Shown: positions 2,305 through 25,243 of the stretch, piece by piece
How the letters are laid out: every line of letters begins with the position of its first letter
How positions within the stretch are numbered: the first letter of the stretch is position 1
Assembly: GCA_963795855.1 (NCBI GenBank)
Contig: CAWCIZ010000003.1
Span: 672,001-736,000 of the forward strand
Origin: Vulcanimicrobiota bacterium
GTDB taxonomy: Bacteria > Vulcanimicrobiota > Vulcanimicrobiia > Vulcanimicrobiales > Vulcanimicrobiaceae
Length of the DNA: 64,000 nucleotides
Direction: 5' to 3'
Program-made: the position numbers and the translations under genes
The notes under the pieces: model-generated
The model's database searches: none
Told to the model about the DNA's origin: nothing
The model's input: only the letters and a program-made list of their open reading frames with translations

Positions 2305-2443
2305 GTTCCTTGGTTTACGATGGTTGCGGGACGGCCCCCGCATCAGCTGGAACCCTCCCTTGCGCAGGCGCGTTGCATTCAGGCAACGGTCTGCCGATAG
2401 ATTGTTGTATAGGACAGCTTTGAAAGCGAGGTTTCACCCTCCC

Positions 2444-4128: not shown

Positions 4129-4327
4129 TGTAGCATGAGTTTAGCGAAAGCCGGGCGTTCGCGAATCAGGCCGCCGGCTCCATCGTCTAGGGCCGGGAGG
4201 CCTGCCCGCGGCGCCTACGCCGCCCTCGCTGTGCCGCCAAGCGAGGCGAGCAATATGGCGTCCGTCCCGTGCGCTTTCGAATGTGCGTGGGTACCCTCTG
4301 GCAGCACTTGCAGAAAGGGCTTCGCAC

Positions 4328-4744: not shown

Positions 4745-4746
4745 CG

Positions 4747-5238: not shown

Positions 5239-5246
5239 GCGAGATC

Positions 5247-6266
5247 CTACGGCTGCAGAACGAGAAGCGCGAACGTACCGGGCACCACGTGATAACGGTC
5301 CCGGTACGTCGTTGCTTTCGGATTGATCAGCAACTTCGCCGTTACCAAAAAGACATCACCGGTGGTTGGATCGAGCGCCATCGTGCGCGCTCCCGCTTCC
5401 GTTTTTGCATTTTGCGCGAGCGCGAAGTTGTCCGGCGCAGCTTCATGAATGACCGTAAGCGTTGCATCTCGGCCGTTTGATGCGAACGCGAGGTTGCTAT
5501 TCGGGTCGAAGCGTGTCGCGTCGGTTCCCGCACCGGTCGCGATGGTCGTCACGACACGTCCCGTGTCCGCATCGACGATACCCATCTGCCCTTCACATGC
5601 CGTGAACAACCGGCGGTTCTTCGTATCCATCGAAATACCCGACGGGCTTTGACACCTTCCAAGCGGCCAGCGCGCGTTGACGGCGGCTTTCGCCGCGTCG
5701 ATCGCAACGATTTCGCTCGTGCTCTCCAAGTTGTCGTACACCATGCCGCGGCCGTCGGCAACGGCGAATTCGGGACGGCCGTTCAACGGAATCGTGGCGA
5801 CGACCGCGTTGGTCTGCGCGTCGATGACGGTGGCGTCGTTTCCGCCTCCGTTAAACGTAAGAACGCGTTTGCTGACCGGTTCGTACACGATCGCGTCGGG
5901 ATTCTTCGCGCTGGTATGAATTGTCGTCTGCGTTTTCAACGTGCGCAGATCGAAGACGGTTACCGTACCGTCGCGCCCGTTTGACGTAAAGCCCTTCCCG
6001 AGTTCTTGCGCCAGCGCGATGCCGTGCACGCCCGGCGTGTCCGGAATATCGCCGAGCACGTGGCCGGTGAGCGGATCGACAACCATCACGTGCGTGCCGC
6101 GCGAGATGAATAAGCGCTTTCCCGCGGCGTCGTACGTGAGATAGTCCCAGCCGCCATCGCCGCCCAGCAAGAACCGGTGCGTCAGATGGTAATTCGGCGG
6201 CGTTTGCGCGGCGCCAAGCGCGGTCGCGGCAAGCGCAAGCACGGCAGCAAGTACGATCTTCATCAC
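5247..6266 (-). CDS. YncE-like secreted beta-propeller protein
   Basis: Signal peptide; GGDGGWDYL, GVHGIALA, NPDAIVYEP, GARTMALDP blade repeats. Confidence 0.85.
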   Translation of the reverse strand: MMKIVLAAVLALAATALGAAQTPPNYHLTHRFLLGGDGGWDYLTYDAAGKRLFISRGTHVMVVDPLTGHVLGDIPDTPGVHGIALAQELGKGFTSNGRDGTVTVFDLRTLKTQTTIHTSAKNPDAIVYEPVSKRVLTFNGGGNDATVIDAQTNAVVATIPLNGRPEFAVADGRGMVYDNLESTSEIVAIDAAKAAVNARWPLGRCQSPSGISMDTKNRRLFTACEGQMGIVDADTGRVVTTIATGAGTDATRFDPNSNLAFASNGRDATLTVIHEAAPDNFALAQNAKTEAGARTMALDPTTGDVFLVTAKLLINPKATTYRDRYHVVPGTFALLVLQP

Positions 6267-6308
6267 GCACGCTTCGACCGTTCGGCAAGCGGCCCTGGCG
6301 CCGGGAAC

Positions 6309-7022
6309 TTAGTGAACCGCGATCGGCACCATGATGCTGTTGCCCGCTTCATCGTGAATCACTGCCGAACACGTTCCGGGCCCGATCGGCTTCACCGAAT
6401 ACGTGGCGGCAGCCTCGCCGGATGCCGCCAGTGAAATCGATGCAATGCCCTTGCACGTGTCGCGCTCGGAAAAGGCGGCGACCTTCGCGCTGCTCAGCGC
6501 CATGAAGAGATGCGACTCGGCGTTGCTGTCTATGCTGACGCTCTGCGGCGTGGCGCTTAGCGGATTGCTTGCGGCAGGCGCGGGCGCGGAGATCGCCGCT
6601 TCACCGCGGCGCCATTCGCTGCCGTCGGTGAACGTCACCGACTGCACGTGACAGGTAATTTTCGGTGCAACGAATTGCGGCAAGACGAACGCCTGGCCGG
6701 CACCGTTCGTATAACGGTGCGTAATCTCTACGCCCGGCGAAAACGTGCCGACGTCGCGAATGACGAACGTGTCGCCGTTCGAGTTCACCGCAAAATTGAT
6801 GAGATTTGCAGTCTTCGACGATTCGTTCGTAAACTGAATTTTGATGCCCGAACTGCTGGAAGCAACGGGCACGCCGAAGAGCGTTTGCGTGTTGTTGTTA
6901 TTGAGCATCGGACCGCAGGCATTGACGACTACCGGCGCAGTGCCCGCGCCTTGCGCAAAAACGGCGGGCGTCATGGCGCCGAAGAGCGCCGCAATTGCGG
7001 CCGCAAACAAGCATTTGTTCAT
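6309..7022 (-). CDS. Hypothetical secreted protein
   Basis: GAGG RBS, signal peptide MNKCLFAAAIAALF, beta-rich domains with Cys pairs. Confidence 0.75.
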   Translation of the reverse strand: MNKCLFAAAIAALFGAMTPAVFAQGAGTAPVVVNACGPMLNNNNTQTLFGVPVASSSSGIKIQFTNESSKTANLINFAVNSNGDTFVIRDVGTFSPGVEITHRYTNGAGQAFVLPQFVAPKITCHVQSVTFTDGSEWRRGEAAISAPAPAASNPLSATPQSVSIDSNAESHLFMALSSAKVAAFSERDTCKGIASISLAASGEAAATYSVKPIGPGTCSAVIHDEAGNSIMVPIAVH

Positions 7023-7119
7023 TGCTGCACCTCGGTCATACCGTACCATACTTTCGACGATCGACGCACCGTCTTGCGGCGATAATAGGAACGGAGCCGT
7101 GCACGCCTAAGCACCCGGG

Positions 7120-8904
7120 ATGCGATATGCTGCCATCGCTTGCATTCTCGCGGCCGCCCTTGCCGGCTGCACGATGGTTCGTGCCGCACCTTCTGCGCCG
7201 GCTGCACCCGCCGATAGTGCGGTGCGCGGCGACCGCGCTGAAGGCTGGCTTCAGCAGAGCCGCTCGCCGGTACTCGCGCGCAACGGCATGGTTACCACGA
7301 GTCAACCGCTCGCGGCGCAGGCGGGGCTTCGAATTCTAATGCAAGGCGGCAATGCGATCGACGCTGCCGTCGCAACGGTCGCGACATTGAACGTCACCGA
7401 ACCGATGATGGTCGGGATGGGCGGCGACGTTTTTGCGATCGTCTACATTGCGAAAGATCGTAAGTACTACGTTCTGAACGCGAGCGGCGTGGCGCCGAGC
7501 GGTGCAACGGTCGCGCATCTCAATGCACTCGGATACAAATACGATCCGGCAAACTGGGGCCCCGGTTCCGGCATGCCGCCCGGTGGTATACTCGACGTCA
7601 CCGTGCCGGGATCGGTATGGGGCTGGGATGAAGTGCTTCGGCGATTCGGCACGATGAAGTTCGATCGCGTGCTTGCTCCGGCAATCGAGTACGCACAGAA
7701 CGGGTTCCCCGTCTCGGAGCGAATCGCTCACGATTGGCGTTTGCCGAACGCACTTCCGCTCCGCGGATGCTGCACGCTACTCGATCCGGATTCCGTGCGG
7801 ACGTGGTACGTCAACGGCGTGCCGCCGCGGGCGGGACAGATATTCCGCAATCGCGATCTCGCGCGCTCCTTTCGGCTGCTGCAGAAATACGGGCGCGACG
7901 TGTTTTACCGCGGTGAAATTGCACGAGCAATCGTTGCGAAATCGCGCGCGCTGGGCGGAACGATGACGCTTTCCGATCTCGCGCATTATCGCGGCGAATG
8001 GGTGCGCCCTATTGATACGCCCTATCACGGCTCGCATTTGCTCGAGCTGCCGCCGCCGTCGCAAGGATTCGCAGCGAATGAGGCGCTGAACATCTTGGCC
8101 CAATGCGTGCCGAAATTGGTGCCGGGCGAATCGCTGGCCTCACTTGGACCGGCGAATCCGCAGTACTGGCACTTGCTGGTCGAAGCGAAAAAACTTGCGT
8201 ACGCCGATCTCTATCGGTTCAACGCCGATCCGGACGTCGTACACGTTCCGGTCGCGAATCTCGTCTCAGCGCAGCACGCTGCGTCGATGTGCTCGAAGAT
8301 CGATCCGAATCGCGCCTCGACACCGGCCGCGCCCGCTGCGGATACCGGCATCAGCGATACGATCGTGCTCTCGACTGCAGATCGGTGGGGCAACATGGTT
8401 TCGTGGGTCAATAGCAATTACGACGAATTCGGTTCGGGTATCACCGTGCCGGCTTACGGGTTCATTCTTCACGATCGCGGCGGGTTGTTTACCCTGGATC
8501 CGAAAAGTCCGAACGCGATTGCTCCGCACAAGCGCCCGTTCAACACCCTTGCGGCTGGATTTATTGCGCAAGGCGGACGCCCGTTGATGACGCTCGGTCT
8601 CATGGGCGGCGACATGCAAGCGCAAGGGCACGAACAAATCGCCGTCGACGTGATCGATTTGCACGCCAACGTGCAGCAGGCCGGCGACATGGCGCGGTTT
8701 CGTCATTCCGAAATCTCGAACGCGCTGTATTTGGAGTCGCCGCTTTATCAGCTCGTCGGCGCGCGTCTGAAAGCCATGGGTCATAACGTGCGTTCGAGCG
8801 ATCGGGCGCCGATGGGCGGCTATCAGGCGATCATGGTGCTGTCGAACGGCGCTTATGCAGGGGGCTCCGATTTCGGAAAAGACGGCGAAGCCGTTGGCTG
8901 GTAG
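7120..8904 (+). CDS. ggt: Gamma-glutamyltransferase family protein (lipoprotein signal)
   Basis: GGNAIDAAVA, GMGGDVF, nucleophile DT in SDTIVLSTADRWGN, KRPFNTL, MGGDMQAQG; LAGC lipobox. Confidence 0.92.
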   Translation: MRYAAIACILAAALAGCTMVRAAPSAPAAPADSAVRGDRAEGWLQQSRSPVLARNGMVTTSQPLAAQAGLRILMQGGNAIDAAVATVATLNVTEPMMVGMGGDVFAIVYIAKDRKYYVLNASGVAPSGATVAHLNALGYKYDPANWGPGSGMPPGGILDVTVPGSVWGWDEVLRRFGTMKFDRVLAPAIEYAQNGFPVSERIAHDWRLPNALPLRGCCTLLDPDSVRTWYVNGVPPRAGQIFRNRDLARSFRLLQKYGRDVFYRGEIARAIVAKSRALGGTMTLSDLAHYRGEWVRPIDTPYHGSHLLELPPPSQGFAANEALNILAQCVPKLVPGESLASLGPANPQYWHLLVEAKKLAYADLYRFNADPDVVHVPVANLVSAQHAASMCSKIDPNRASTPAAPAADTGISDTIVLSTADRWGNMVSWVNSNYDEFGSGITVPAYGFILHDRGGLFTLDPKSPNAIAPHKRPFNTLAAGFIAQGGRPLMTLGLMGGDMQAQGHEQIAVDVIDLHANVQQAGDMARFRHSEISNALYLESPLYQLVGARLKAMGHNVRSSDRAPMGGYQAIMVLSNGAYAGGSDFGKDGEAVGW

Positions 8905-8978
8905 GAGCGCGCGGTCGTGCGCTCAGTAAGCACTGCGCGAATGCGGACTACGCGGCCTACCCGCCACGGGGCCTATCT

Positions 8979-10079
8979 TCAGTGATGCGGTACGAGCAAG
9001 AACCCGTGCGGGATACCGTTTAGCGTCCCCGTCCCCACGATCTCGCCGCTGTCGTTGACGTCTTGCGCGTTCGTCAGTACCCACTGCGAGCAGCTGGCCG
9101 GAATCAATGTATTGAGATCTTTTAATGTCCCGGAGACCCACACGAAGGCGCGCGAGGATTTCGTGCCGGCGTAGTTTCCGACGACGACGTCGGCGTTATT
9201 GATGGCATTGCCGATGATCGATGCGTATTGCTGCGCAACAGGCGAATCGATCTCTTGTGCACTGCTGCCGTTCGAAACGAACGTTGCCGTATTGTTCGTG
9301 TTCGTTATCGGGGAGAAGCCGACGACGTGCCCGGCATCGTTCATATCTGTGATGGCGCTGCCATCCCCGTAGATCGTGCCGGCGGGACCAACTTCGTCTA
9401 GGGAAAGGTTCGACGACGTCGCGATGCCTTTGCCGCCTGGATAGTAAAAAGGCGCCAGTGTGCCTGCACAGCCGGGTCCCCCGTTTTGGCTGAATCCGCC
9501 GAGCGCGAGGAAGCCGCTATTATTGATTGCCAGCGAGAGTGCCTGAGGCAGACCTACAGGCGGCGCGCTAACGGAAAACTCCAGCGCGAGTGCAGTGCAA
9601 AATCCCGCAATGCCGCTTTGGTACGTGATCGCCGCGACGGTTCCGGCGTTGTTTATGTGCGCATCGCTGATCGCGAGGTTCGGATCCGTTCCCACGTTGA
9701 GTGGCGTAATCGTTCCATTCGACTGGTATTCGGCAAAGGTGCTTGTGCTAAAACCAACGGCGACGCCTGCGTCGTTGACGTCGTCCAGTTCGCTGCCCGG
9801 ATACCGCGTGAGGCTTCCGTTGCGGTAGAAGAATACGCCGTTTGCAACGTTCCCGACCACCGTCCCCGAGCTGTTTATTGCGCTCGGTTGGACGTTCGCA
9901 CCCAAATCGACGAGATCGTAGAGCGCCGGAATAACAGAAGAACCGCTGTGCGCAGCGGGCGCGCCGGCATTCGGCGCCGGTTGGGTGGACGGAAGCGATC
10001 CGCTTCCGGAACCGCCGCCTCCGCAAGCGGCAAGGCTGAACACCAACAAAACCGCCGGTAGCGATGGCGATACTCGCAT
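8979..10079 (-). CDS. HAF-repeat extracellular lipoprotein
   Basis: LAAC lipobox; repeated AINxxGxVVG units, RAFVW..DLNTLIP, HGFLLVP C-terminus. Confidence 0.8.
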   Translation of the reverse strand: MRVSPSLPAVLLVFSLAACGGGGSGSGSLPSTQPAPNAGAPAAHSGSSVIPALYDLVDLGANVQPSAINSSGTVVGNVANGVFFYRNGSLTRYPGSELDDVNDAGVAVGFSTSTFAEYQSNGTITPLNVGTDPNLAISDAHINNAGTVAAITYQSGIAGFCTALALEFSVSAPPVGLPQALSLAINNSGFLALGGFSQNGGPGCAGTLAPFYYPGGKGIATSSNLSLDEVGPAGTIYGDGSAITDMNDAGHVVGFSPITNTNNTATFVSNGSSAQEIDSPVAQQYASIIGNAINNADVVVGNYAGTKSSRAFVWVSGTLKDLNTLIPASCSQWVLTNAQDVNDSGEIVGTGTLNGIPHGFLLVPHH

Positions 10080-10228
10080 AAAGACTCCTCGCGGACGCTG
10101 CTTTCGCAAAAATCATGCAGCGACATCAAGGCCGGAGCATCGCCCAGTCAGGCACACATCGAGGGGACTTTTGGGTACTTGGGCTGACCTCCGTAGTGCT
10201 TTCGTCCGCCTGGGTACAAACGCCGCAA

Positions 10229-10798
10229 ATGTCGACGAACGCGCTCGGCGCAATTGCAATCGTCCTGATGATCGCCATGGTAGTGACGCGAGTCGCGCTT
10301 CTCGCACGCCGCGGTATCGCAGCGATGAAGTTCGGCGGAACCGACAAAACCGATTTCGTAATTCTGCCTTTCGTGCTTTTTTATCTCTACCTGGTATTTG
10401 CGGGCGCGCTGCACTGGCCGACGGTGATACATTCGACGCTCTTTACGGTACCGTCGCTTTCATGGATCGGTGTAGCTTTATGCGCTGCGGCGCTCGTGCT
10501 GATGCTTGTGACGCTCGTCTCATTCGGCGCGAGCTTCCGCGTAGGGATCGACACGGAACGACCGGACAAACTCGTCACGTCGGGCGTCTTCGCGGTCACG
10601 AGAAACCCAATCTACGTCGCATTCGCCTCGATGCTAATCGGCGAGTTCTTGATACTTCCAAGTTGGATTCTGCTGCTTTACCTGATCGCGGGCGGAGCGC
10701 TTTTTCACCGGCAAGTCTTGCGCGAAGAAGCGTATCTAAGTCTTCACTATGGCGAAGCGTTTTGTAGTTATTGCCGGCGCGTGCGCAGATATCTCTAA
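10229..10798 (+). CDS. Isoprenylcysteine carboxylmethyltransferase / PEMT family membrane protein
   Basis: LVTSGVFAVTRNPIY and REEAYL..YG..F..YC.RVRRYL motifs; start uncertain. Confidence 0.85.
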   Translation: MSTNALGAIAIVLMIAMVVTRVALLARRGIAAMKFGGTDKTDFVILPFVLFYLYLVFAGALHWPTVIHSTLFTVPSLSWIGVALCAAALVLMLVTLVSFGASFRVGIDTERPDKLVTSGVFAVTRNPIYVAFASMLIGEFLILPSWILLLYLIAGGALFHRQVLREEAYLSLHYGEAFCSYCRRVRRYL

Positions 10799-10936
10799 CG
10801 CACGCACCGCAAAGGTATTACGCCGCCGGCCTCGTTGTTTTTACGGCATGCGAAGATGACGATCCCGACGAAGGCGCACCTTGTCAACGACGGTGATGGC
10901 GGCAGCGGCCTAGCCGGATCGATCAGCGACTTCAAT

Positions 10937-11581
10937 TTAATCTCTGATTCGTTCGCGAAACGCTAATTCGTGCCCGTACCTCGGCAATGCGCGCCGCCGA
11001 TGGCGGATCGCGCGAAGCGTCATCTTGCACAAAAGTGATGGTCCGATGCCGAGCAGCGCATAGACCGAGAACCCTTCCGGCGTCGTTGCATTTTGCCGCA
11101 TGAAACCGAACCGTTCCAGTAGGCGCGCGCCCTGAGGCGAAAACGCAACGGCACAAATGTTGGCCCCGAGCGGAGCCTTCGAGCGTTCGATTCCGGACCG
11201 CAGTGCGCGTTTCATCAATCCTCGCAACACGGCGGCGGATCGGTGTTCGGGGCGAATGACTATACCGGAAACGTACCAGTACTTGCAGCCCCGGACGTCA
11301 TCACGCGAGTGGAAGTCGTCAAGCGCGAGCGACCATCCTCCGCTCAAGATGCGCGCAAAGGCGCCGCGATGCAGAGGCCATGAAGTAATTCCTCCAACGA
11401 CGGCGCTCTGAAAAAGCAGCACGTGAACCGCGTCCGGATAGCGGCGCCACCAGCGCGCGTACGCCTCGAATTTTAGCGCGCCCTCACCGTAAAGCGTGCG
11501 GTTGACGTGCCAGAGTTCCTGCAGCCGCGTTTCATCGCGAACGGGTTCGACCGTATATCCCAGGGGAAGGCGCTCGTGCAA
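10937..11581 (-). CDS. GNAT-fold hypothetical protein
   Basis: YVSGIVIRPEHR (motif A-like) and AFSPQGARLLERFGF (motif B-like). Confidence 0.6.
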   Translation of the reverse strand: MHERLPLGYTVEPVRDETRLQELWHVNRTLYGEGALKFEAYARWWRRYPDAVHVLLFQSAVVGGITSWPLHRGAFARILSGGWSLALDDFHSRDDVRGCKYWYVSGIVIRPEHRSAAVLRGLMKRALRSGIERSKAPLGANICAVAFSPQGARLLERFGFMRQNATTPEGFSVYALLGIGPSLLCKMTLRAIRHRRRALPRYGHELAFRERIRD

Positions 11582-11651
11582 GAGCCGCGCGGCGATCGCG
11601 GCAACGCAGCGGAGTGACCCGGCAAGAAGCGCGCGTGAAAGGCGGTTTACG

Positions 11652-11825
11652 TTAGCACTTTCCGGGCGTGTCGGCGCCGGGTGGACAGAAGTCCTTGCCG
11701 CTGTCCGTCGTCAAATCGCCAATCGACGCATCGCTTTGGAATCCGCGGCCGTCGGTGTAGAGTCGAGGAACGAGGTAGGTGCATACAATAGCGGGCGCGC
11801 TGTACGTCATGATTTGATCGCTCAT
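11652..11825 (-). CDS. 57-aa peptide, RiPP-precursor-like
   Basis: MSDQIMTYSAPAIVCTYLVPRLYTDGRGFQSDASIGDLTTDSGKDFCPPGADTPGKC; YxxPxI leader-like motif; TATCAT -10 box 6 nt before the ATG. Confidence 0.5.
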   Translation of the reverse strand: MSDQIMTYSAPAIVCTYLVPRLYTDGRGFQSDASIGDLTTDSGKDFCPPGADTPGKC

Positions 11826-12034
11826 TGCCACATGATACAAGGGAAGTGACCTTTCGCCATGATGCCGCTGTCCGTGCCCGTTGGCCCTAGCACGGTCCGG
11901 GAACGCGTCCGCCGGGCGCCGAGCGTAGGTCATTCATACTACCGCGTGATGGTCCGATATTCTTACGGCACTCCCACGGCACGACCGCGACGTACAGTAC
12001 GCATGCGAAGTGCTTTCGTGAAGGAGTTTCTACT

Positions 12035-12232
12035 ATGCGAACCCTCAGCCGAAACCTCAACCTCTTGGCAGCCGTAGCGTTTTTCGCCAGCGCGGCACTG
12101 CCGTGCACGGCACAGACTCCGCCGCCGGGCGACGCGACTGCCGCCGATCATCCCGCAAACGACCGGCCGTCCGCCGATCAACAAAATCATCGTGATGCGC
12201 GTGCCGCTCAACAATGGATGCAATGTCGGTAG
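12035..12232 (+). CDS. Short or truncated secreted protein
   Basis: AAGGAG RBS and a clear signal peptide but only 65 aa. Confidence 0.4.
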   Translation: MRTLSRNLNLLAAVAFFASAALPCTAQTPPPGDATAADHPANDRPSADQQNHRDARAAQQWMQCR

Positions 12233-12318
12233 TAGCGGCCAAGCGCTTCCGTATCAGCCGGCGCCAAGCCACCATCTGGCTCATGGCTCCTGGAATGTTG
12301 TCGTGATAGGGTGAGCTC

Positions 12319-12849
12319 ATGAAAAACACCATCGGTCACGCAATGCTCCTTAGCTTTGCGACGGTTGCGCTGGTCCTGTCCAGCTCGCAGCCAGGTGTCT
12401 CCGCGATGCCTACGCCGATTCCCGGCGGCGCAAATCAACTTCGAGGCGTAAGCGGAAGTCTTTCGTCTACGTTATTCAACGGCAAAATTCGGATCCGAAA
12501 GATGGCGTTACGGGCCTCCACGGCGGCCGAATACACGCCCGCGGATGGCCAGCGCGGAATAGTGCTGTCCTGGTTAGTTTCCAACGGCACAAAGTCAGAA
12601 CGCACCGGCTATTTTGCGGCATCGCTCGCCGATGCAGACGGCGTGGTCGTCAATGGTAAGCCGGTGACCGTGTACAGCGCATACTACTCGCTGCAACCGG
12701 GCGCGGCTGCGCGGCAAACTATGCAATTCGTATTACCGGCCGCTTATTCACCGACGAAAATTTTGCTTGTCGATCAGGGTGGCCCGGCCGGTCCGGCCTT
12801 TCGCATCGAACTGAAGAGCTCGGACATTCCGTCGCCGGCCGCACCTTAG
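12319..12849 (+). CDS. Hypothetical secreted protein (DUF4352-like Ig fold)
   Basis: Signal peptide; VSNGT..ASLADADG..LQPGAAARQTMQFVLP pattern. Confidence 0.7.
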   Translation: MKNTIGHAMLLSFATVALVLSSSQPGVSAMPTPIPGGANQLRGVSGSLSSTLFNGKIRIRKMALRASTAAEYTPADGQRGIVLSWLVSNGTKSERTGYFAASLADADGVVVNGKPVTVYSAYYSLQPGAAARQTMQFVLPAAYSPTKILLVDQGGPAGPAFRIELKSSDIPSPAAP

Positions 12850-12911
12850 CGTCAACGGCGGTAGATTCGTTGTTCTTGCGGAGAGACGAGCGCTGAAAAC
12901 GAGGAAGACTA

Positions 12912-13238
12912 ATGCGTAAGACATTTTCTATTGGGATCTTTGCGTTCGTGCTGCTGCTCCAGTCTCAAAGCTGGGCCGGCTCCATGGGCAATGGCTCTGC
13001 CACCAGCGGCATGCAAGGCGTTAGCCTTCAACAATTTCGCAATGAATCCGACGCGAAGAAGCATTGCCCGGGCGATACGGTTGTTTGGGGTAGCAGCGCA
13101 AATCGCGGCATCTTTTTCACGAGCGGCGCCGGCCCTTATTCTTCTAGAGCCGGACAGCAAGTGCGCATCGGCGGCTTCTACGCTTGTGAGGCTGATGTGA
13201 AGAAGGCCCCCCGGTTAAAGATCAATTCCGGCGGCTGA
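12912..13238 (+). CDS. Small secreted protein with Cys pair
   Basis: GAGGA RBS, signal peptide, AKKHCPGDTVVW...YACEAD. Confidence 0.7.
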   Translation: MRKTFSIGIFAFVLLLQSQSWAGSMGNGSATSGMQGVSLQQFRNESDAKKHCPGDTVVWGSSANRGIFFTSGAGPYSSRAGQQVRIGGFYACEADVKKAPRLKINSGG

Positions 13239-13385
13239 TCGCGCCGGTTGAAACCTAGGGCAAATGATGCGCCGGCAACAGCAGTTCGCTTGGACCGCAG
13301 ATGGGCTGTGGGAGCTTACGCCTGCTCCGGCATGGCTCGCCGGCGTCAAACGCATTGATGGGTCGTTGATCCGTTTATAGCGAGT

Positions 13386-14105
13386 CTACACAATCAAAGT
13401 TGGACTGCAGCGGCTTTCGTAGGCGTTCGCCAAATCGTGAAGTTCGTGCTTGGCGTCGCCCGTGAACGCCGGTGCATGCATGAGCGCCATGCAAGAAATG
13501 TCGAGGTCGGCCAGTGAGCGGATGGTGGGCGCGGTCACAGCGGTAAGAGCGGTCGCACCAAAGCGATCCTCTGCCTGCATCGCCGGTTCGATTAGACCGT
13601 TTTCGGTCACGGGCGCCGTTCGGCCCGTGCACGTAAAGAGGTCACCGGCAAATAGAGTGCGCGTCGTTTCTTCGTAGATGACCCCGGCGTCCCAACCGTG
13701 GGGAACGTGTGGCGTCGCGATGTAGCGAATGCATTTGCCGCCTAAATCAATCGTTTGCGAACTCTTCATGGGACGCGCCGGGCGGATCGCCTGATCGTTG
13801 ACCGAGACCATGACGCCAATTGCGCCGTGCGCTACAGTTGAGGCCGGTGCTAGTGAAAGCCACTCGTTCATCGCGCCGCATTCGTCCGCTTCATAGTGGC
13901 CGAACATAATCCATCGCAATCTCGATGGCGTCAGGACTTGTGCGACTTGTTCGGCGACCACCGGAAATAACGCCCGCATGCCGGTGTGAAATAGCAGCGG
14001 TTCTTCCGCGTCGATCAAAAACTGGTTGAACACCATACCGGCCTGTGGAACGTATGTCGAAATGCGGTAAATCTGCGGCGCAATCTCATCGAGGCGTGTT
14101 TCCAT
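13386..14105 (-). CDS. MBL-fold metallo-hydrolase, flavodiiron/ODP-like
   Basis: FNQFLI..EEPLLFHTG, GHYEADECG, TPHVPHGWD, LFAGDLF. Confidence 0.85.
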   Translation of the reverse strand: METRLDEIAPQIYRISTYVPQAGMVFNQFLIDAEEPLLFHTGMRALFPVVAEQVAQVLTPSRLRWIMFGHYEADECGAMNEWLSLAPASTVAHGAIGVMVSVNDQAIRPARPMKSSQTIDLGGKCIRYIATPHVPHGWDAGVIYEETTRTLFAGDLFTCTGRTAPVTENGLIEPAMQAEDRFGATALTAVTAPTIRSLADLDISCMALMHAPAFTGDAKHELHDLANAYESRCSPTLIV

Positions 14106-14279
14106 ACGTCAGCACGTTCGACGCTTCGTCGAAATGGCCTTAATTGTCGATAAGGCAAGCAATTGGAAGCAAGCGGCATCGTCACGCTTTGGACATTGTC
14201 CACGCGGTCAGTCGAAACGACCATGAAGGCTAAGCGCGGAGCCGCGGACAAGCTAGGCTGTCCGAAAAACCTTTGAAGA

Positions 14280-14327
14280 AACAAGCCACGGGCGATTAGC
14301 TCAGCTGGGAGAGCGCCTCCCTTACAA
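14280..14327 (+). repeat. Direct repeat: 10-nt leader plus 5' half of tRNA-Val (left att-like site)
   Basis: AACAAGCCACGGGCGATTAGCTCAGCTGGGAGAGCGCCTCCCTTACAA matches 18171-18219 except for one indel; it stops at the end of the anticodon loop. Confidence 0.93.
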
Positions 14328-14871
14328 ATAGGCTTTCGCTATTTTGGCCGCTTCGAGAGAGCGCCGTTTCCTCGCGAAATGGGTGCTTTTTTGTGTCCCT
14401 GAGTGCCGTTTAGTGATCGCAAATGCAGCGAAATGCACCAGCGACAAGGGTAGAAACGAGGGTCAAGAAAAGGTTTCGGCGCTGCGAGTTTGTTAGCCGG
14501 TCATGAAAAGAGTGAACCACGCTAAGTCAGCGTTGTGCACTCAAAAACTTGTTGTGCCATCGCTCCCGCCTGCGAAAACAACGCTGGCAACAAGCGGTCG
14601 GCGCCATTCACTTCATAGCGTTTCATTGCGGTGTTGGTAACACCATGATCTATAGTATGGCGCCGATGGCGCACGTGCCCAAGCTGCTCAGAATAGTCAG
14701 CGTCTCTCGTGTGCGGTTCAGTCGGGTGCGCTGGGGACGCGCATGGTACGCTCCGCTGTGTGTGACGCCTTTCCCTTTCCGACATAATCAAACCAGGCGT
14801 GAAACATCACAAATGTCGCGTCATTACGGACGCGCGTGACGTAAGAGTATTTTGCCTGTCTCGATGGCAGA

Positions 14872-14929
14872 TTGACAACCCGCGCCATTTGTGATTCACT
14901 TGGTTTGTTTTTCAAACTAATTTGAAGTG
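14872..14929 (+). promoter_or_regulatory. Sigma70 -35 (TTGACA) with palindromic operator(s)
   Basis: TTGACA at 14872-14877; GTTTG-N5-CAAAC and TTCAAA-N4-TTTGAA inverted repeats just before the 14927 start. Confidence 0.55.
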
Positions 14930-15511
14930 GAGACGTACTCTGTGGACCCCGAAGAGGCACAGCAGCATCTCTTAATGGTCGACACCATTCTGAGGCGCAA
15001 CGATACACGATCGCGCGCCGCTGCAGCCGCATATATTTTGTGGGGCGTGGGAAGCGCGCTGTACTACGTCTGGTTCATTCAGGCGTTTCGCGCGTTTCTC
15101 GGAATCTGGATCTTTAACGTCGCCTTTGCTGTGACGCTTGCAGCACTCGCGGCTAGCGTGTGGACGTTTCGCCTAGGTGTTCGAGATCGCGTGACGGTCG
15201 CGGATCGTCAGGCTCTCGCAGCCTTTGCGGGCGTCACCGTCGCCATGGTTCTGCTGAAATTGATATGGAATACAAACGGGCTGGTGCCAGGCCCGGCATA
15301 CGGCATCGTGTGGACATTTGGTTTCGCGGTAGCGCTTACGCTGCTCGGTTCCGGCGGCCAGCCAATCCTATTCATGGGCGGCATCGCGCTTTTCTGCGGA
15401 ATTTTCTTCGGTAGTTTGGTTCCTTCGCAACTGGCGGTCGTATTGTTCTTGGCGAATCTCACCGGCATAGCCGGACCCGGCATCTATTTTGCGTTGCGCC
15501 GTAGTCGTTGA
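14927..15511 (+). CDS. Hypothetical multi-pass membrane protein
   Basis: About 6 hydrophobic segments; stop overlaps the next start. Confidence 0.75.
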   Translation: METYSVDPEEAQQHLLMVDTILRRNDTRSRAAAAAYILWGVGSALYYVWFIQAFRAFLGIWIFNVAFAVTLAALAASVWTFRLGVRDRVTVADRQALAAFAGVTVAMVLLKLIWNTNGLVPGPAYGIVWTFGFAVALTLLGSGGQPILFMGGIALFCGIFFGSLVPSQLAVVLFLANLTGIAGPGIYFALRRSR

Positions 15512-15807
15512 TGGATGAAACTCTTCTGTCGAACATCCGGCTGTCAATCATCTCGGAATTGCTCACAAGCACGTGGGTTTCATTTCCCGAGCTCCTTAAG
15601 GCAACCGGCGCCACGAACGGAAACCTTAGCACGCATTTAGCCAAACTCGTCGACGCCGCTTATATCCGCGAAGACAAATCCATTGCCGGCCGCAGGCCGC
15701 TCACGAGATATAGCATGACGCCTGCGGGACGGCGCGCCTTCTTCAACCACTTAGAGGAACTAGAAGCGATTGCGCGCGCAGCGCGCTCCCATAAACGTCG
15801 TCGATAA
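15508..15807 (+). CDS. Winged-helix transcriptional regulator (HTH_34/ArsR-like)
   Basis: RLSIISEL..SFPEL..TGATNGNLSTHLAKL..GRRPLTRYSMTPAGRRAF. Confidence 0.88.
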   Translation: MMDETLLSNIRLSIISELLTSTWVSFPELLKATGATNGNLSTHLAKLVDAAYIREDKSIAGRRPLTRYSMTPAGRRAFFNHLEELEAIARAARSHKRRR

Positions 15808-15822
15808 TCGGCAAAAGGAATC

Positions 15823-16887
15823 ATGAATATCATCATTCGATCGGCTCTAGCCACATCGCTCAGTTTTCTCATCCTCGCCGCTAAGGCGAACGCAGCGCCA
15901 CCAGCAACACCGCCGCTGGTGCCATTTTCTGTGAGCTTCAACCACTTCGACCATCACTGGTTCGAATGGATGCCGAACAACCGCAAATACGAAGCAATCG
16001 AAGCAATGGTTTCCGATGCATCGGACGGCAGCCATGGAATCATCGTTTTCGAAACCGAACGGGCAGCGCCGAAACGGCAAGTATTTTACACCAACGACCG
16101 CGCTTTTGCCGCGACCGGATTTGCGCTGTATCGCGACATTTCCTACCAAGTTGACGGCACAGCCACGGCGCCCCTAAGCATGCATGTGCATCTGCTCGAC
16201 CGGGACGGCGCCCCTGTAGACTGGTCGATTTCGTTCGCATCGGGTTCGGCTCTAGAATCCAAATACGCCGGCTTAACGAATCAAAGCGGGCATAGCGGCT
16301 CCCGGCTCTTCATGCTGTTCTATCGAGAAAAAGACGCTATAACAACGGACAATCATCTCACAATCGGCTCAACGGATTACACCCTGTCCCCAGCGCAGAT
16401 CGCAAAGCTCCCGTTCGGGCCCGCATATCACTCGAATGTCTTTATCGCAACGCTTCCATACGGCAGCGAACACGTTGCGATCCCTGACGCCGGTCATTTC
16501 AATCTCGGAAACGAAGTATATGCAAAGACGCAGAATCCCGATGGTTCAATCGACTGGCACGCTCGCCCGTATCCCGGACATGCCGTTACGCTTCACTTAG
16601 TCAACGGAGGGATCAGGACGTATGCGGTCGAGTCGTATGGTCACAGGTTTGCCGTGACGTTCTCTTCCGCGCTGACACCGCGGCCCGGCGCTACATGCTC
16701 GTTTTCCTTTTCGTTCGACGCGTTCACGAATCTCATGCACGGTACAATCGCAGTTGCGGGGTCCAACTCCGCGCCCCGGGTTGTGTGGATCATCGATTCG
16801 GCGTGGGCGAAAAATCGCCGTTTAGTCACAGAGTATTCAGGCCTTACGCCCTCAGGCTACACGTTCGACTTTAAGACGTTGCCGTAA
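15823..16887 (+). CDS. Hypothetical secreted protein
   Basis: AAGGA RBS, signal peptide, 354-aa beta-rich ORF; no family recognised. Confidence 0.75.
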   Translation: MNIIIRSALATSLSFLILAAKANAAPPATPPLVPFSVSFNHFDHHWFEWMPNNRKYEAIEAMVSDASDGSHGIIVFETERAAPKRQVFYTNDRAFAATGFALYRDISYQVDGTATAPLSMHVHLLDRDGAPVDWSISFASGSALESKYAGLTNQSGHSGSRLFMLFYREKDAITTDNHLTIGSTDYTLSPAQIAKLPFGPAYHSNVFIATLPYGSEHVAIPDAGHFNLGNEVYAKTQNPDGSIDWHARPYPGHAVTLHLVNGGIRTYAVESYGHRFAVTFSSALTPRPGATCSFSFSFDAFTNLMHGTIAVAGSNSAPRVVWIIDSAWAKNRRLVTEYSGLTPSGYTFDFKTLP

Positions 16888-17352
16888 CCGAAGTTGCACG
16901 TTACTGCGAGCACGCTGAGGCGTTGAAAGGATGCGCCCGAGGTACAACGACAATCGAATTGTGCATTCGCCGTTCGCTAAAGCCGTGAAACAAACTGCGG
17001 CTCTGAACGTTGGCGATATTCTTGAGGAGCGCCGATCGTTATCGGCATGTTCCAATCGCTGTACGTTTTGACGTACGCGTCTTGCATGCTGATTGGAGCC
17101 GCCGCCGCGCCGTCGGTCTCATACCATTTTCCTAATACCTTGAGGACTGCTCCGGGTGGCCTGAACCATCGCCCGTAAGTCGCGAACGTGACACTCTTGA
17201 CGCAGGCGAGCGAGACGGACCCGCGCCCCGAAAGCCGCCTGCGTTTCAGGCTTAGCAACCGCGCCGGGACTCTGCGGGGACGGGCGTCTGTTACCCTTCG
17301 AGCACATCACAGGCTCGAGTCGTCCGGCGACTCGTGCTCATTGGAGGTAGCA

Positions 17353-17907
17353 ATGATATTTACTCCAGTAATTTTTGCCTTGGCGACAATCCTTAGTCCT
17401 CAATCCAAAAACGGCGCACCAAATTCGATCTCCAAAGCGAACGCGAGCACCGGGTACGATCGTTACGGCTTCCCCATCCTCAAGCCGGGACTCTGGCTCG
17501 TCACCACTACCGTCAGGGTACCGAAACTAGTCTCGGAAGGGCATCGCTACTGCGTGCCGCAGGCCGATGCCGCGCGAAACCTGATAGTACAGTTTCTGGC
17601 AGCACAGCCGGACGGAGGCTACAAATGTCAGCTTTCGGGGGGCGCCAACGGCTCCGGCAGCGCATCTTGTAGCAGACTCTCGCAATCGTACACGGGCATG
17701 ACGACGATCGCGAATCTCACGTGGACTGCCATGGCGAACCGCCTGCAGACGAGCTTCCAAACGAACGTCGTCGGCAACGTGAAGTTCAGTTCAGCCGATC
17801 CGCGGCAGCCCTCGGGTGAAGTGCCGTTTGATGAAATGATTCTCGGCTGGTATCAAGGGTCATGCATCCCCACACCCCAGCCGACCGAGACAGCGACACC
17901 ACGCTAG
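17353..17907 (+). CDS. Secreted protein, DUF3617-like
   Basis: GGAGG RBS; LKPGLWLVTT...YCV...C...C...WYQGSC pattern. Confidence 0.65.
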   Translation: MIFTPVIFALATILSPQSKNGAPNSISKANASTGYDRYGFPILKPGLWLVTTTVRVPKLVSEGHRYCVPQADAARNLIVQFLAAQPDGGYKCQLSGGANGSGSASCSRLSQSYTGMTTIANLTWTAMANRLQTSFQTNVVGNVKFSSADPRQPSGEVPFDEMILGWYQGSCIPTPQPTETATPR

Positions 17908-18180
17908 CGACACCACGCTATCGATGACATTCAACGCTCTTTAGTTGCGGCGCTCGCGCTGAACAACGCGCGCTAGGGCTGCATGAATCAATGGCGTCTG
18001 CGCGCCCAAGCCACTATCTGGCCCATTGCTTCTACAATGCGGTGCTGATACGGTGAGTGAAGCTGATCCGGGTTGGTGGACTGCGGCAGCCACTTCATTT
18101 AAGAAGGATAACCACCAGCGCGAGGGCCAAAGGGCAGTGCAGACGTCGCGTGACGAAAAAAGTCCGTCTGAACAAGCCAC

Positions 18181-18257
18181 GGGCGATTAGCTCAGACTGG
18201 GAGAGCGCCTCCCTTACAAGGAGGATGTCGGCGGTTCGAGCCCGTCATCGCCCACCA
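18181..18257 (+). tRNA. tRNA-Val (anticodon TAC)
   Basis: Acceptor GGGCGAT/ATCGCCC, D-arm GCTC/GAGC, anticodon stem CCTCC/GGAGG with loop CTTACAA, GGTTCGAG T-loop, encoded CCA. Confidence 0.98.
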
Positions 18258-18269
18258 CTTACCACCTCT

Positions 18270-19085
18270 ATGGATTTGCAAGAACGCACGTACCGAGTTC
18301 ATCACACCAGCGCCTCCGAGAGCGGCGGCATCGCCGTCGTGACGATGGCCGGCCCGAGAAGCGCAACGCGCTCTCGCTCGAACTGATGCGCGAACTCATC
18401 GATGCGTTCCGCGCGATCGGCGCCGATCGCGCCGTTCAAGTCGTCATCCTCCGCGGTGAAGGCCAGGCCTTCAGCGCGGGCCACGATCTGCGCGAGACTG
18501 CAGTGCCGCGACGTCGCCGCCTACCGCGAGATCTTCGACACGTGCGTGGAGTTGATGGAAACCATCCAGTCGATTCCCCAGCCGGTCATCGCCGAAGTCG
18601 CAACGATCGCGACGGCCGCGGGATGCCAGCTGGTGGCAACGTGCGATCTGGCGGTTGCCGCGCAAGAGGCGCGATTCGCCACGCCCGGCGTGCGCATCGG
18701 CCTGTTCTGCACGACGCCGATGGTGGCGCTCTCGCGCAGTATCGGCCGCAAGCGCGCGATGGAGATGCTGCTCACGGGCGACTTCATCGATGCGGCCACG
18801 GCGGCGGAATGGGGCCTGGTTAACCGCGTTGTTCCCGCGGACCGGCTGACTGCGGAAACGCTGGCACTTGCCGGCAAGATCGCCGAGGCAAGCCCCGCGG
18901 TCGTCGGCCTCGGAAAGCAGGCCTACTACGTGCAAATCGACCTCGAGCAAGGCGCCGCCTACGGGTATGCTAAGGAAGTCATGACGCTCAACGCCATGGA
19001 CGGCGACGCGCAGGAGGGTATCTCTGCGTTCGTCGGACGGCGGAAGCCCACGTGGCGGCAAAAAAGACATTCTGTTAATATTTAG
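18270..19085 (+). CDS. Enoyl-CoA hydratase/isomerase family (frameshifted near the 5' end, probably sequencing error)
   Basis: AFSAGHDL, IPQPVIAEV..ATAAGCQLVATCDL, FATPGVRIGLFC, DAQEGISAF. Confidence 0.88.
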
Positions 19086-19135
19086 GTATAAGTCGACCTA
19101 CGCGAAGGGGTCTGCGGCAAGGCCGCTAAACGAAC

Positions 19136-19265
19136 GGGTACTCCGGCACATCTGTGGGCAGTGTCGCGAGGATTACAATAAAAGCGTCGCCCACACCCGG
19201 TATGCGGGAAACCGCATACGCGACGGCAGTGAGGGCTCGCTTTCGGCGGGCCTTCCTGTTTTTTG
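19136..19265 (+). ncRNA. Candidate structured leader RNA / sRNA
   Basis: Several stems, a GAAA tetraloop hairpin and an intrinsic terminator in the intergenic region; no known family recognised. Confidence 0.45.
19231..19265 (+). terminator. Intrinsic terminator ahead of DUF5693
   Basis: GAGGGCTCGC-TTTCG-GCGGGCCTTC stem followed by CTGTTTTTTG. Confidence 0.7.
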
Positions 19266-19283: not shown

Positions 19284-21330
19284 GTGAACCGGATCGATCC
19301 TCGAACGCGCTTTGCCGCGTTCTTGCTTTTGCTGGCGCTCGTCGCGTGCGCTTTTCGTTGCCGTCAGCCGCGTGCGCATCGAGCAGCAAACGCGCCGCGT
19401 CGAGATCGCGATGGACTACAACGATTTCCTCGCGTTCGCGCGATCGTACAACTATAATCCGGCCGCGTTTCTGGTCGAACTGCGCCGCGCAGGCTTGACC
19501 TCGCTGGCGCTGACCGAAGAACTGGGCGGCTCGCTCACGGGCTCGACCAGCAGCGATGCATACCGCCATCTCCGGCCTCGGCCTGCTCGACTCCGGCGCG
19601 CTTAGCGCCGGTTGCCGAATCCGACGCTCGCTGCACTGGTTCGCGAGCACGCGTGCGCCCCGGCGCCGTTTATCTGCTCGTGTACGACAAACCGACGTTC
19701 GAGCGGTACATGCGGCAGTTGCCGCTGCATTTCGAGCGCTCGAGCATTCGCGTGCTGCACGCGATCGGCGCCATACGTGATCGCGATTGCGCACGCAAAT
19801 CGATTACTTCAACACGAGCACGCTCGGCATTCCGGCCGATCAGATCGCGCTCGCGCGCAGACTCGGCTTCTTCATCATTCCGCGCTTTCAGAACGACGAG
19901 CGCCTGCAGGACGGGCAGATCGCCGCGATGTTCGACGACGTGCACGCCGGCAAATGGGTTTCGACCGTCATTTTTTTCGGGCTGCGCAACCAGGTGCTCG
20001 GATTTCCCGATCACGTGCGGGACACCGCCGCGGTGTTCAAAACGCACAAGTCCGTCGAACTATCGGCGAGATCGAAACCTACGACGCGAGCCAAGTGCAG
20101 AAGGGTAACGTCGAACTCGCGCGGCTCGATTCCCGGGCGCACCGTTCGCGTGCAAGCGATCGGCAAAGTCGAACTGGACAAACTGACCGTCCCGGAGATC
20201 GTCGCGCGATACGAATTGGGCGTGCGCGAGCGAAACGTGCGCGTCGTCTATCTGCGCCCGTTCCCGCACGAATACAACGGCCTTTCGATCGAACAGACCA
20301 ACGTCGAGATGGTTCGCCAGATCGCGACCGATCTGCGCGAGCACGGCTTCCGGCTCGGGCGCGCCACGCCGATTCCGCTCTATCGCGGCAACAACGCGCA
20401 TTCGCAGTCGGCATCGCTGCACTTGCCGTTCCGTCGATCTTCGTGCTGCTGCTCGGCTGGTACGGCTGGTACCGTCCGTCGTGGGCGATCGCTGCGTACG
20501 CGCTGACGATCGCAGTGTACGTCGGCGGCTACGTCGTCGCATCACGATCTGCTCGGCCGCTCGATCATCGCGCTTGCCGGAGCGCTGCTCTTTGCGACCG
20601 CGGCGTTCACCGTGCTCGGTCCGGCGTTTTACGAAGAGCCGACGCCGCGCATGGGCGCGCAGATCGTGCGCAGTCTGCGCTGGACGCTGATTGCAACGGG
20701 CGTCGCGCTGCTCGGCGCGCTCGTCGTCGTCGGCATCATGAGCTCGCCGCTGATGATGGAAGAAGTCGAAGCGTTCCGCGGCGTGAAGCTCGTTCTGGCG
20801 CTGCCGCCGCTCATCGCGCTTGCGCTGTACCTCTTTACCGATCGCTTCGACTCGGGCATCGCGCAGTCCGCGCGAAGCGTTCGCCGCGCCGATCCGCATC
20901 TATCAGCTGCTGCTGGCGTGCGTCGTGCTCGGCGGCGGCGCGCTGGTGCTCGTGCGCAGCGGCAACCAAAGCGACATCGCGCCCTCCGCACTTCGAACTG
21001 TCGCTGCGCCATCACCTCACCGCGCTGCTCAGCGTGCGCCCGCGCTTCAAAGAGTTCGTCATCGGCTTTCCGTGCATGATGCTGCTGCCGGCGCTGCGCC
21101 GGCGCGATCGGCGCGCCGTGGGCATTCTGCTCGTCGCTTGGCATCGGCATCGGCATCGGCGACGTCATCGACACGTTCTCGCATCTGCACACGCCGCTGC
21201 TGATCTCGATCATGCGCGTGTTCAACGGCCTGGTGCTCGGCGTCGATCATCGGCGCGATCGTCATCGCGCTCTACCGCCGTTCGCGCGTCCGCGGCGTCG
21301 TGCCGAGTCACGTTCGCAAAGTCGGGCGAC
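19284..21330 (+). CDS. DUF5693 family membrane protein (multiple frameshifts; end approximate)
   Basis: RVRIEQQTRRVEIAMDY, GVRERNVRVVYLRP, FRGVKLVLALPP, VRPRFKEFVIGFP, DTFSHLHTP fragments across frames. Confidence 0.8.
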
Positions 21331-22450
21331 GTGCGCGTTCCTGCTCTCGCGGCTACTACGGATTCGGAAACCTGGGCGATGAGGCGCTGCTCGAAGTAAT
21401 CGTCTCGCAACTCAAGACGCGCTATCCGTACGCGCGAAATCGACGTGCTTTCCGCAACACCCGGAGCAGACGGCGCACGATCTGCGCGTCGAAGCAACGC
21501 CGCGCTGGGACGCGAAAGCCGTCCGCCGCGCGATCGATCGCGCCGACGTCGTGCTCTCCGGCGGCGGCGGTTTGCTGCAGAATGCGACCAGCCTGCGCAG
21601 CCTGATCTATTATGCCGGCATCATTCGCGCCGCCGGCGCGCGCGAACCGCAAAGCGATGATCTTCGCGCAGTCGATCGGCCCGCTCGACTTTTGGGGCAC
21701 GCGCGCTCGTCAAAGATTGGTGCAAAGGCGTCGCCGCGGCGACCGTGCGCGACGCGCGCTCCACGCAGTTGCTGGCGTCGCTTCTGCCCGCCGGTACGCG
21801 CGTGGAACAAACCGCCGATCCGGTGTTTCTGTACGACGCGCCGGAAGAAGACTCGATCTCTCAGCCGAAGGTCTCGGTCCGCAAAGCGATCCGCTCGTCG
21901 TCGTCAGCGTGCGCAAAGCGACCGGCATGAAGGACCGCCTCGACGTCGTCGCCCGCGCCGTCGACCGGCTTGCGCAAGTGCACGGCGCGCGCGTGGCATT
22001 TCTGCCGCTCGGCGGCGCGCCGGATGCGGAAGTCTCGACGCTGGTCATTCGCAAATGCAAGACGCGCGCCGGTGCTGCTGCCGGAATGCTCGCTCGCAGC
22101 GCGCGGCCAACATCATTCGCCGCGCCGACGCCGTCGTCGGCATGCGTTTGCACGCGCTGATACTCGCCGCGCGCTACGCCGTGCCGTTTCTGGCGATTCC
22201 GTACGATCCGAAGGTGGCGGCGCTGTGCGAAGATCTGGCGTATCCGCTGCCGCCGCTTTTCACGCTCGACCCGCCCGGCCCGAAGCCGCGAACCGGAGCG
22301 ATCGATGCGCTGGTCGACCGGTTGTGGACGCGAGCGCGACGCGCTTGTCCGCGCACTTGAGCGCGCGCGGCGAGCGCCTGCGCGCGCTCGCGCTGCGCGA
22401 AATTTCGAGGTCTTGCGACGCAGCTGCTCGCGCGAAAAGCCGTCGTCCCC

Positions 22451-22454
<4 letters not shown>
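21331..22454 (+). CDS. csaB: Polysaccharide pyruvyl transferase (frameshifted; ends approximate)
   Basis: GYYGFGNLGDEA, SGGGGLLQNATS.RSL.YY, AQSIGPL, GMRLHALILA, YDPKV. Confidence 0.88.

Positions 22455-25243
<2,789 letters not shown>

Follow-up and report, generated by a model that had tools for sequence, protein, structure and literature searches.

The DNA considered here (‘the window’) is a stretch of 64,000 nucleotides from contig CAWCIZ010000003.1 (positions 672,001 to 736,000) of a Vulcanimicrobiota soil bacterium (assembly GCA_963795855.1; genome G000 below). Within it, a 3.9-kb island adjoining a tRNA-Val(TAC) gene is very probably the integrase-less remnant of a tyrosine-integrase element that inserted at that gene and has probably become fixed there; in terms of known element classes, it is most likely a decayed remnant resembling a cis-mobilizable element (CIME). 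Its ends assign it to an element family of the Vulcanimicrobiaceae.

A duplicated tRNA half and its empty counterpart

An initial annotation, prepared from the letters of the window alone, had described a duplicated 5′ half of tRNA-Val running to the end of the anticodon loop, and this repeat is real: positions 14280-14327 (48 nt) recur on the same strand at 18171-18219 (49 nt), with a BLAST E value of 8e-17 in the 3.06-Mb source genome, each copy consisting of 10 nt of upstream sequence followed by tRNA positions 1-38 and ending with the 7-nt anticodon loop. Other copies of the attachment (att) site had been suggested as something to look for; BLAST found no third copy of the repeat in the 3.06-Mb assembly. 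The sole tRNA in the window, recognized by both ARAGORN and Rfam, is the only Val(TAC) gene among the 48 tRNA calls of the assembly, and its place downstream of the stranded half agrees with the 5′-half polarity originally proposed. The stretch between the two anticodon loops (14328-18219) measures 3892 bp, with a G+C content of 55.9% in the island interior against 61-62% for the contigs.

14290-14327 (+): displaced 5′ half of tRNA-Val(TAC), core side of the left attachment site (attL); inferred 7-bp overlap 14321-14327, the anticodon loop
18181-18257 (+): tRNA-Val(TAC), apparently reconstituted from an element 5′ half up to 18219 and the host 3′ half from 18220
13365-14327 (+): apparent pre-insertion target, made up of an ODP-family gene (13386-14105, minus strand; PF19583) and the right end of an older element; 96.4% identical to G165

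In G165, a genome of another genus, 977 bp match window positions 13365-14338 at 96.4% identity and continue straight into an intact tRNA-Val. The match with the window breaks at 14328, the first base past the loop, which bears out the anticodon-loop crossover that the initial annotation had invoked, and the downstream genes are the same in both. By this alignment the G165 locus is an empty site for the 3.9-kb island, with the single tRNA-Val that had been predicted, and the island is an insertion. Had the 3.9 kb been conserved core DNA, relatives should carry it at the same place; the interior was not found at the tRNA-Val locus in 250 family genomes, and in only one of these did it match anything, namely a DUF3617 homolog in G005 (69-76% identity) that lies far from the tRNA.

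The indel reported for the D-loop of the repeat is present, but the extra base (an A at 18196) sits in the intact gene, the fragment having the usual form. It is absent from all 26 relative loci that matched a D-loop pattern (two unpublished genomes, G025 and G034, included; three of 29 loci examined gave no match), as well as from one contig of read run X1, a distant strain mix whose contigs leave 14340-17011 uncovered and cannot reveal circles. Since relatives are without the extra A, and similarly odd one-base insertions occur in several other tRNAs of the assembly, it is probably an assembly error.

The crossover core and the left arm

14311-14337 (+): inverted core-type half-sites flanking the 7-bp loop, with GA at positions 1-2 and CCT at positions 6-8 on both sides
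14328-14470 (+): left arm, about 143 bp, well preserved; nine copies, the closest in G012 (91.6% over 166 bp)
14361-14392 (+): terminator-like hairpin and T run (z -3.1, 0 of 200 shuffles)
14444-14464 (+): two direct arm-type repeats, consensus GACAAGGGTC, at the end of left arms

The ten bases to the right of the loop are the inverted partner of the ten to its left, as is the tRNA's own 3′ side, and four of the five half-site positions are invariant in the left arms, the fifth being kept in eight of nine. This is the layout of a tyrosine-recombinase core, in which an overlap lies between inverted half-sites (as set out in PMC8371274), here with a putative 7-bp overlap at the anticodon loop from which the cleavage positions are predicted. 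The nine left arms, drawn from six genomes and one metagenome contig with the window's own included, have a mean column identity of 87%; the junction of tRNA half and first arm bases occurs seven times in 6 of 301 family genomes, again including the window (a reversed control gave 1), and also in two metagenome contigs, one of them apparently the same sequence as the G003 locus. The hairpin is kept in all nine arms, with 94% of cells paired, while its covariation is not above that of shuffles (57/500); a role as terminator for the stranded half-tRNA is plausible.

That the repeat arose through misassembly, or by chance, has next to no probability. Many apparent frameshifts in downstream genes, together with the odd tRNA insertions mentioned above, would fit misassembly, but the E value of the repeat, the fact that five further genomes and two metagenome contigs show this junction too, and the match of both flanks to the orthologous G165 locus all speak against it.

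A complete relative and its integrase clade

The same left arm occurs in G166, where it is followed by a complete 21.8-kb member of the family that extends up to tRNA-Val(TAC). Its 401-amino-acid integrase (PF00589) is co-oriented with the tRNA and ends 28 bp before it, and the last codons of the gene encode the same repeat pair as the left arm; the other genes include an NgoMIV-type restriction-modification system, Vsr, an OLD/UvrD pair, NikA, a MobA/VirD2 relaxase and an HTH_17 protein resembling an excisionase (Xis). With an integrase and a relaxase, and with no type IV secretion system seen, this relative is an integrative and mobilizable element (IME), whereas the window island has neither an integrase nor a relaxase of its own. 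The position of the G166-type integrase and the shared repeats suggest that it acts on these att sites.

Among the best 8000 candidates scored, 17 proteins matched this integrase at E ≤1e-20 (43-100% identity), and 14 full-length clade proteins formed one group in a quick tree, with a support of 100 in the Shimodaira-Hasegawa-like approximate likelihood-ratio test (SH-aLRT). A profile search of 385 class genomes returned 30 matches, three of them members of the clade (G166, G012 and G111), and a fourth clade integrase, a fragment in G102, lay outside those 30. All four are co-oriented and upstream of tRNA-Val(TAC), at distances of 28 bp (G166), 7.1 kb (G012), 1.3 kb (G111) and 2.6 kb (G102). 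By contrast, 20 of 27 distant-kin loci (unpublished genome G059 included) lie convergent on the 3′ side of a tRNA, one is co-oriented on that side, six have no tRNA within flanks of about 1.5 kb, and none lies upstream. Because the four clade loci are all upstream of the tRNA, as against none of the 27 distant kin, the reversed polarity looks like a trait of this integrase clade.

When genome contigs were searched with this one integrase as query, nothing came up but the integrase itself and two distant matches. Two origins of the clade were considered and rejected: a phage origin (no junction matches in viral contigs, where integrases are only 27-30% identical), and a flip of the G059 integrase, which lies 3′ of tRNA-Val(TAC) and is not a sister in the quick tree. 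Plasmid integrases are only 25-29% identical to the clade integrase. The clade integrase of G012 (L044:11199-12744) is separated from the right arm by 7 kb, and its reading frame is broken where the N-terminal arm-binding part passes into the remainder of the protein, a break that is either real or an assembly error.

The window island itself, as the initial annotation had stated, contains no recombinase that could be detected: none was found among its open reading frames with Pfam and NCBIfam, the clade profile scored at best -2.4 bits against its six frames, and tblastn of the island with 454 queries from related elements gave matches at the att arms only, with no integrase remnant. A helper elsewhere in the assembly had been suggested as worth seeking; G000 holds nine PF00589 matches, none of which belongs to the clade. 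The best match to a clade integrase in G000 is partial (E 5e-7), and no large serine recombinase (PF07508) was found there.

Right arms and the end of an older element

14205-14262 (+): distal right-arm motif of a putative older element; 14217-14258 reads as about the last 14 codons of a family integrase
14280-14289 (+): arm tip of 10 nt, present again at 18171-18180; the right arms of G166, G005, G111 and G143 finish in similar tips
18122-18180 (+): eroded right arm, of which about 60 bp are left, with one degenerate repeat and without the distal motif or the -10-like hexamer

A right-arm DNA profile was built from seven relatives, without the sequence of the window, and its top-ranked sites in the genome were three sites of the window: first 14205-14262 (E 0.013), then the repeats of the left arm (E 0.88), and third 18122-18180 (E 2.7). 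The last of these scores 8.3 bits (E 0.018 in 20 kb) against 68-89 bits for the arms of G105, G102 and G116. The attL site is whole, while the right attachment site (attR) has a whole core and an arm eroded to that low score.

The 10 nt that precede the tRNA half had been taken for pre-tRNA leader. They are shared by both copies, as claimed, but in both they are the tip of an element's right arm and not a host leader. Site 14205-14262, to the left of the fragment, reads like the last codons of an integrase: what the island inserted into was itself the right end of an older element of this family, and the sequence to the left of 14280 belongs to that older element and not to the host.

When the G166 arm and tRNA were used as query, 17 of the 150 listed matches (the query genome and G000 included) extended at least 16 nt upstream of the tRNA, in 10 genera. 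Of 20 fetched loci, most of which had been picked for extensions of at least 16 nt, nine matched the right-arm profile, one of the nine being a training sequence. The tRNA-Val site appears, from these comparisons, to be visited across the family, yet to be empty of this element family in most genomes.

Accretion upstream of the tRNA

3763-4128 (-): HATPase_c_2 (anti-sigma-type) conserved host gene, left boundary of the accretion zone (Pfam PF13581, E 8e-13)
4130-14279 (no strand): older accreted material, its att ends mostly erased; absent between the anti-sigma gene and tRNA-Val in uninterrupted relatives
18267-19085 (+): enoyl-CoA hydratase-family host gene (PF00378), the conserved right flank; 3′ of tRNA-Val in most relatives examined

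In G024, G364, G181 and G217, where the locus is uninterrupted, a distance of only some 110-135 bp separates the tRNA from the start of an anti-sigma-type gene that adjoins an S41 peptidase gene. The same two genes occupy 2303-4128 of the window, and since the tRNA's neighbor in the uninterrupted relatives is found here at 3763-4128, about 14 kb have accreted upstream of the tRNA, with the 3.9-kb island as the newest layer. The pristine host junction lies about 10 kb left of 14280, at the anti-sigma-type gene, and the G165 locus does not represent the pristine host state. Pieces of 4130-14279 are common to G005, G158 and G165 at 84-96% identity. A search of 4001-18200 that allowed as many as 6 mismatches in 21 nt revealed no further tRNA half, and the host's original 5′ half was not found near 4130.

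The corresponding locus of G158 (L127:5880-6090) still has the host's original displaced 5′ half, in mutated form, at a distance of about 125 bp from the anti-sigma gene. A TAGAAT hexamer lies upstream of it, and after it come a left arm that is truncated and an ODP gene sharing 95% identity with that of the window. A second type of 5′-polarity element is seen at the same tRNA-Val(TAC) loop in G116 (L121:3738-3960 and 5947-6170) and G105 (L122:12520-12749); its left arm, 75% alike among the three copies, is different and carries G-rich repeats, and the two copies in G116 are arranged in tandem, the first adjoining the anti-sigma gene. This second type was not found in G000.

Proposed origin and present state

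In the scheme that best accounts for these features, the attachment site of an incoming member of the family (attP) would consist, in order, of the 3′ end of the integrase gene with arm repeats, a -10-like hexamer, the tRNA 5′ half, the 7-bp anticodon loop, a terminator-like hairpin and further arm repeats. A crossover in the loop would shift the resident 5′ half leftward together with the DNA upstream of it, forming attL with the terminator behind it; at attR, a tRNA whose 5′ half comes from the element and whose 3′ half comes from the host would be rebuilt, and it would take on the upstream DNA of the element. Each newcomer would land at the intact tRNA, and elements would consequently stack upstream, in this case behind the right end of an older family member. 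The window copy would then have lost its xis, int and mob genes, along with the greater part of the right arm; it is probably fixed.

The initial annotation had left the island as either decayed or mobilized in trans. Of these, decay is the better supported: because the right arm is eroded and no helper integrase was found, the island is more likely to be fixed than to be moved by another element. Within the element family, non-autonomous mobility is credible, and it is distinctly unlikely, but conceivable, that the island is a still-mobile cassette that arrived without an integrase, has standard ends and depends on rare complete elements to move it in trans. Units that lack an integrase but have both ends do occur in G143 (4.8 kb), G005 (13 kb) and G012 (3.4 kb, at a non-tRNA site, in a genome that also has the clade integrase); the integrase-tail remnant starts at about one motif in G005, G111, G012 (twice), G143, G105, L079 and the window (14205-14262), as expected if the arm could not do without it; between genera, identity is 96% for the ODP module, against 66-76% for flanking core DNA; and the left arm of the window copy is intact. 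A cassette of this kind is, however, hard to reconcile with a right arm that retains one repeat and no distal motif (8 bits, against 68-89 for full arms), with an assembly in which no clade integrase is found, and with cargo that was not found near tRNA-Val in 250 genomes. The 3.4-kb unit of G012 (L045:12280-15760) lies 1.1 Mb from tRNA-Val, and its exchange point is seemingly about 10 bp right of the loop, unlike those of the tRNA insertions.

It is very improbable that the island is a mosaic and not a discrete element, produced by homologous or illegitimate recombination between the tRNA halves and arm repeats of neighboring relics, with ends that derive from different events. One X1 contig joins 18131, within the eroded arm repeat, to 13369, although weakly (depth 5, a short side of 74 letters, likeness 85); an orphan leader at 18006-18057 is paralogous to 12264-12315; and the G012 island looks composite. 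The left junction, on the other hand, is precise at the loop and is a standard attL of the family, and a mosaic interior would leave the origin of the ends unaffected.

Several points weigh against the reading of the island as a decayed remnant of this family. Taken singly, the right-arm match at 18122-18180 is weak (its E value of 2.7 being genome-wide), as is the integrase-tail reading of 14205-14262 (protein E 0.77, rank 2). G165, being of another genus with its own lineage history, is not a direct ancestor, and its arm tip is slightly unlike that of the window; in G012, G111 and G102, integrase and right arm are not next to each other; and the assembly is 86% complete, such that a helper integrase may lie in its missing part. 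Neither excision nor a circle nor activity of an integrase has been observed, and no raw reads span the junctions. Finally, the -10-like hexamer is absent from both window copies, and a sigma-70 scan found no plus-strand promoter in 13900-18500, a scan that was uninformative in that it returned 2 sites against 2.5 expected.

A broader reading, which is fairly unlikely, is that the tRNA-Val(TAC) gene of Vulcanimicrobiaceae anchors an upstream-growing cassette array. Its units would be small and integrase-less, each with a standard right end of about 150 bp (arm repeats, a -10 box and the last integrase codons) and with a left end that carries a terminator; they would be moved between genera by rare complete IMEs, each arrival would swap the promoter of this single-copy tRNA, and the host could not lose the newest right end. 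If true, such an array would amount to an integron-like gene-capture system with built-in retention.

Transcription of the rebuilt tRNA

The claim that the tRNA is now preceded by element-supplied sequence holds by geometry, from which it would follow that the rebuilt gene must use element-side DNA for its transcription. Among 17 relative ends, 11 have a YARRRT hexamer at a distance of 13-14 nt from the start of the tRNA (background 0.0013 per site), the pattern having been drawn from sequences already seen and matching three of the seven ends fetched later. Because TAnnnT hexamers are visible by eye 17-26 nt upstream of several host tRNAs of G000, a -10 role for the arm hexamer is plausible. 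In the window, a different stretch may serve:

18006-18057 (+): orphan gene leader pointing at the tRNA, paralogous to 12264-12315 (79% over 52 nt)

This leader contains a TACAAT hexamer (18033-18038) where its paralogs have a different one, and it may be guessed that this hexamer is a substitute tRNA promoter; read-through from the cargo is a further candidate source of the transcript, and a scan found no terminator between either of these and the tRNA. At L049 (G007) and L051 (G004), only about 50 nt, which read like the C-terminus of a tyrosine integrase, separate a terminator from tRNA-Val, and it is presumably within this integrase-like relic that the tRNA promoter must lie.

Relation to known systems

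Of the 3919 islands in Islander (PMC4383910), 159 have a 5′ fragment and 2083 an anticodon-centered (A) site; islands that combine the two resemble that of the window in having a co-oriented end fragment upstream of the tRNA and a crossover in the anticodon loop. The window island also falls within the length range of Islander (3.9 kb, in 2-200 kb), and its fragment lies outside Pfam domains and other tRNAs, but Islander requires an integrase inside the island, which the window island does not have and by which the G166 element would qualify. CIMEs (PMC5704250) have likewise lost their integration and transfer genes and, by repeated site-specific integration, stacked in tandem at a tRNA gene; they retain their att ends, of which the window island has a whole attL and an attR with an eroded arm. 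The examples described there are at the 3′ ends of genes in Firmicutes, whereas the stack in the window grows upstream. No adjacent active element that could mobilize the island in cis was found in the assembly.

As in the window, the att site of pTN3-like archaeal integrases (PMC8371274) is the 5′ half of a tRNA, and there expression of the rebuilt tRNA proceeds from element DNA. Integration splits those integrases, unlike that of G166, which is a single 401-amino-acid frame ending short of the tRNA, and the same source (citing Williams 2002) describes 5′-half att sites with promoter replacement as seldom met in bacteria. Islands at dusA (PMC4482086) replace the 5′ end of their target and supply putative -10 and -35 elements, and the old 5′ end marks the far boundary, as it does here; their target is a protein gene, however, and it is the integrase gene's 5′ end that adjoins it, in place of the 3′ end as in G166. 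In the Tycheposon-seeded islands of Prochlorococcus (bioRxiv 10.1101/2020.12.28.424599), newcomers at a tRNA displace older elements and relics, whose accumulation makes the island grow, an analogy limited to island growth, since hosts and cargo differ.

A literature search, in which most subscription papers were outside coverage, found no description of the element family, no mention of Eremiobacterota in the papers listed and no account of promoter replacement at a bacterial tRNA. The IME family with 5′ polarity is seemingly undescribed, although Islander's lists may already hold members; the 5′-replacing polarity is uncommon yet published, and the island of the window is, taken by itself, an ordinary remnant. 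What the family provides is a precisely mapped integrase-att pair of that uncommon polarity, in a phylum with few cultured members, for which complete, decayed, tandem and empty states are all on record. Two matters become testable as a result, namely the switch of polarity by a tyrosine integrase at a symmetric tRNA site and the transcription of a tRNA despite repeated replacement of its promoter, and the G166 integrase becomes a candidate integration tool for the phylum.

Cargo and neighboring sequences

The interior of the island carries four co-oriented cargo genes:

14927-15511 (+): 194-amino-acid hydrophobic protein (judged from the translation), probably a membrane protein, without a Pfam or NCBIfam match
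15508-15807 (+): winged-helix regulator, HTH_34 (PF13601, E 1e-21)
15823-16887 (+): 354-amino-acid protein with a signal-peptide-like start, probably secreted, without a Pfam or NCBIfam match
17353-17907 (+): DUF3617-like protein (PF12276, E 7e-5, just under the cut-off)

For the 354-amino-acid protein there is a weak lead to a tocopherol-cyclase-like fold (ESM Atlas features 0.91-0.93, with a recognition value of 1824, under the guide of 2300). A 14-bp tandem duplication (17894-17921) spans the stop of the DUF3617-like gene and is present as a single copy in one X1 contig.

To the right of the island, at 19500-25000, conserved genes, including one resembling that for isoleucyl-tRNA synthetase (IleRS), are split into many short frames, which suggests an indel-rich long-read assembly. 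No transfer-messenger RNA (tmRNA) was found in the assembly by ARAGORN. A conserved, structured non-coding stretch (19100-19265, plus strand; fold z -3.5) separates the enoyl-CoA hydratase gene from the gene that follows it; in all 15 aligned copies it has a near-invariant core of about 45 nt with a tetraloop hairpin, and a covarying terminator. It has no match in Rfam at E values up to 1, and is a candidate for an unannotated small RNA or regulatory leader of the family. Elsewhere in G000, ordinary 3′ tRNA fragments lie downstream of tRNA-Asp (two) and tRNA-Glu (one), at C1:325640-326330 and C3:656212-656246, and these are small islands of the usual polarity.

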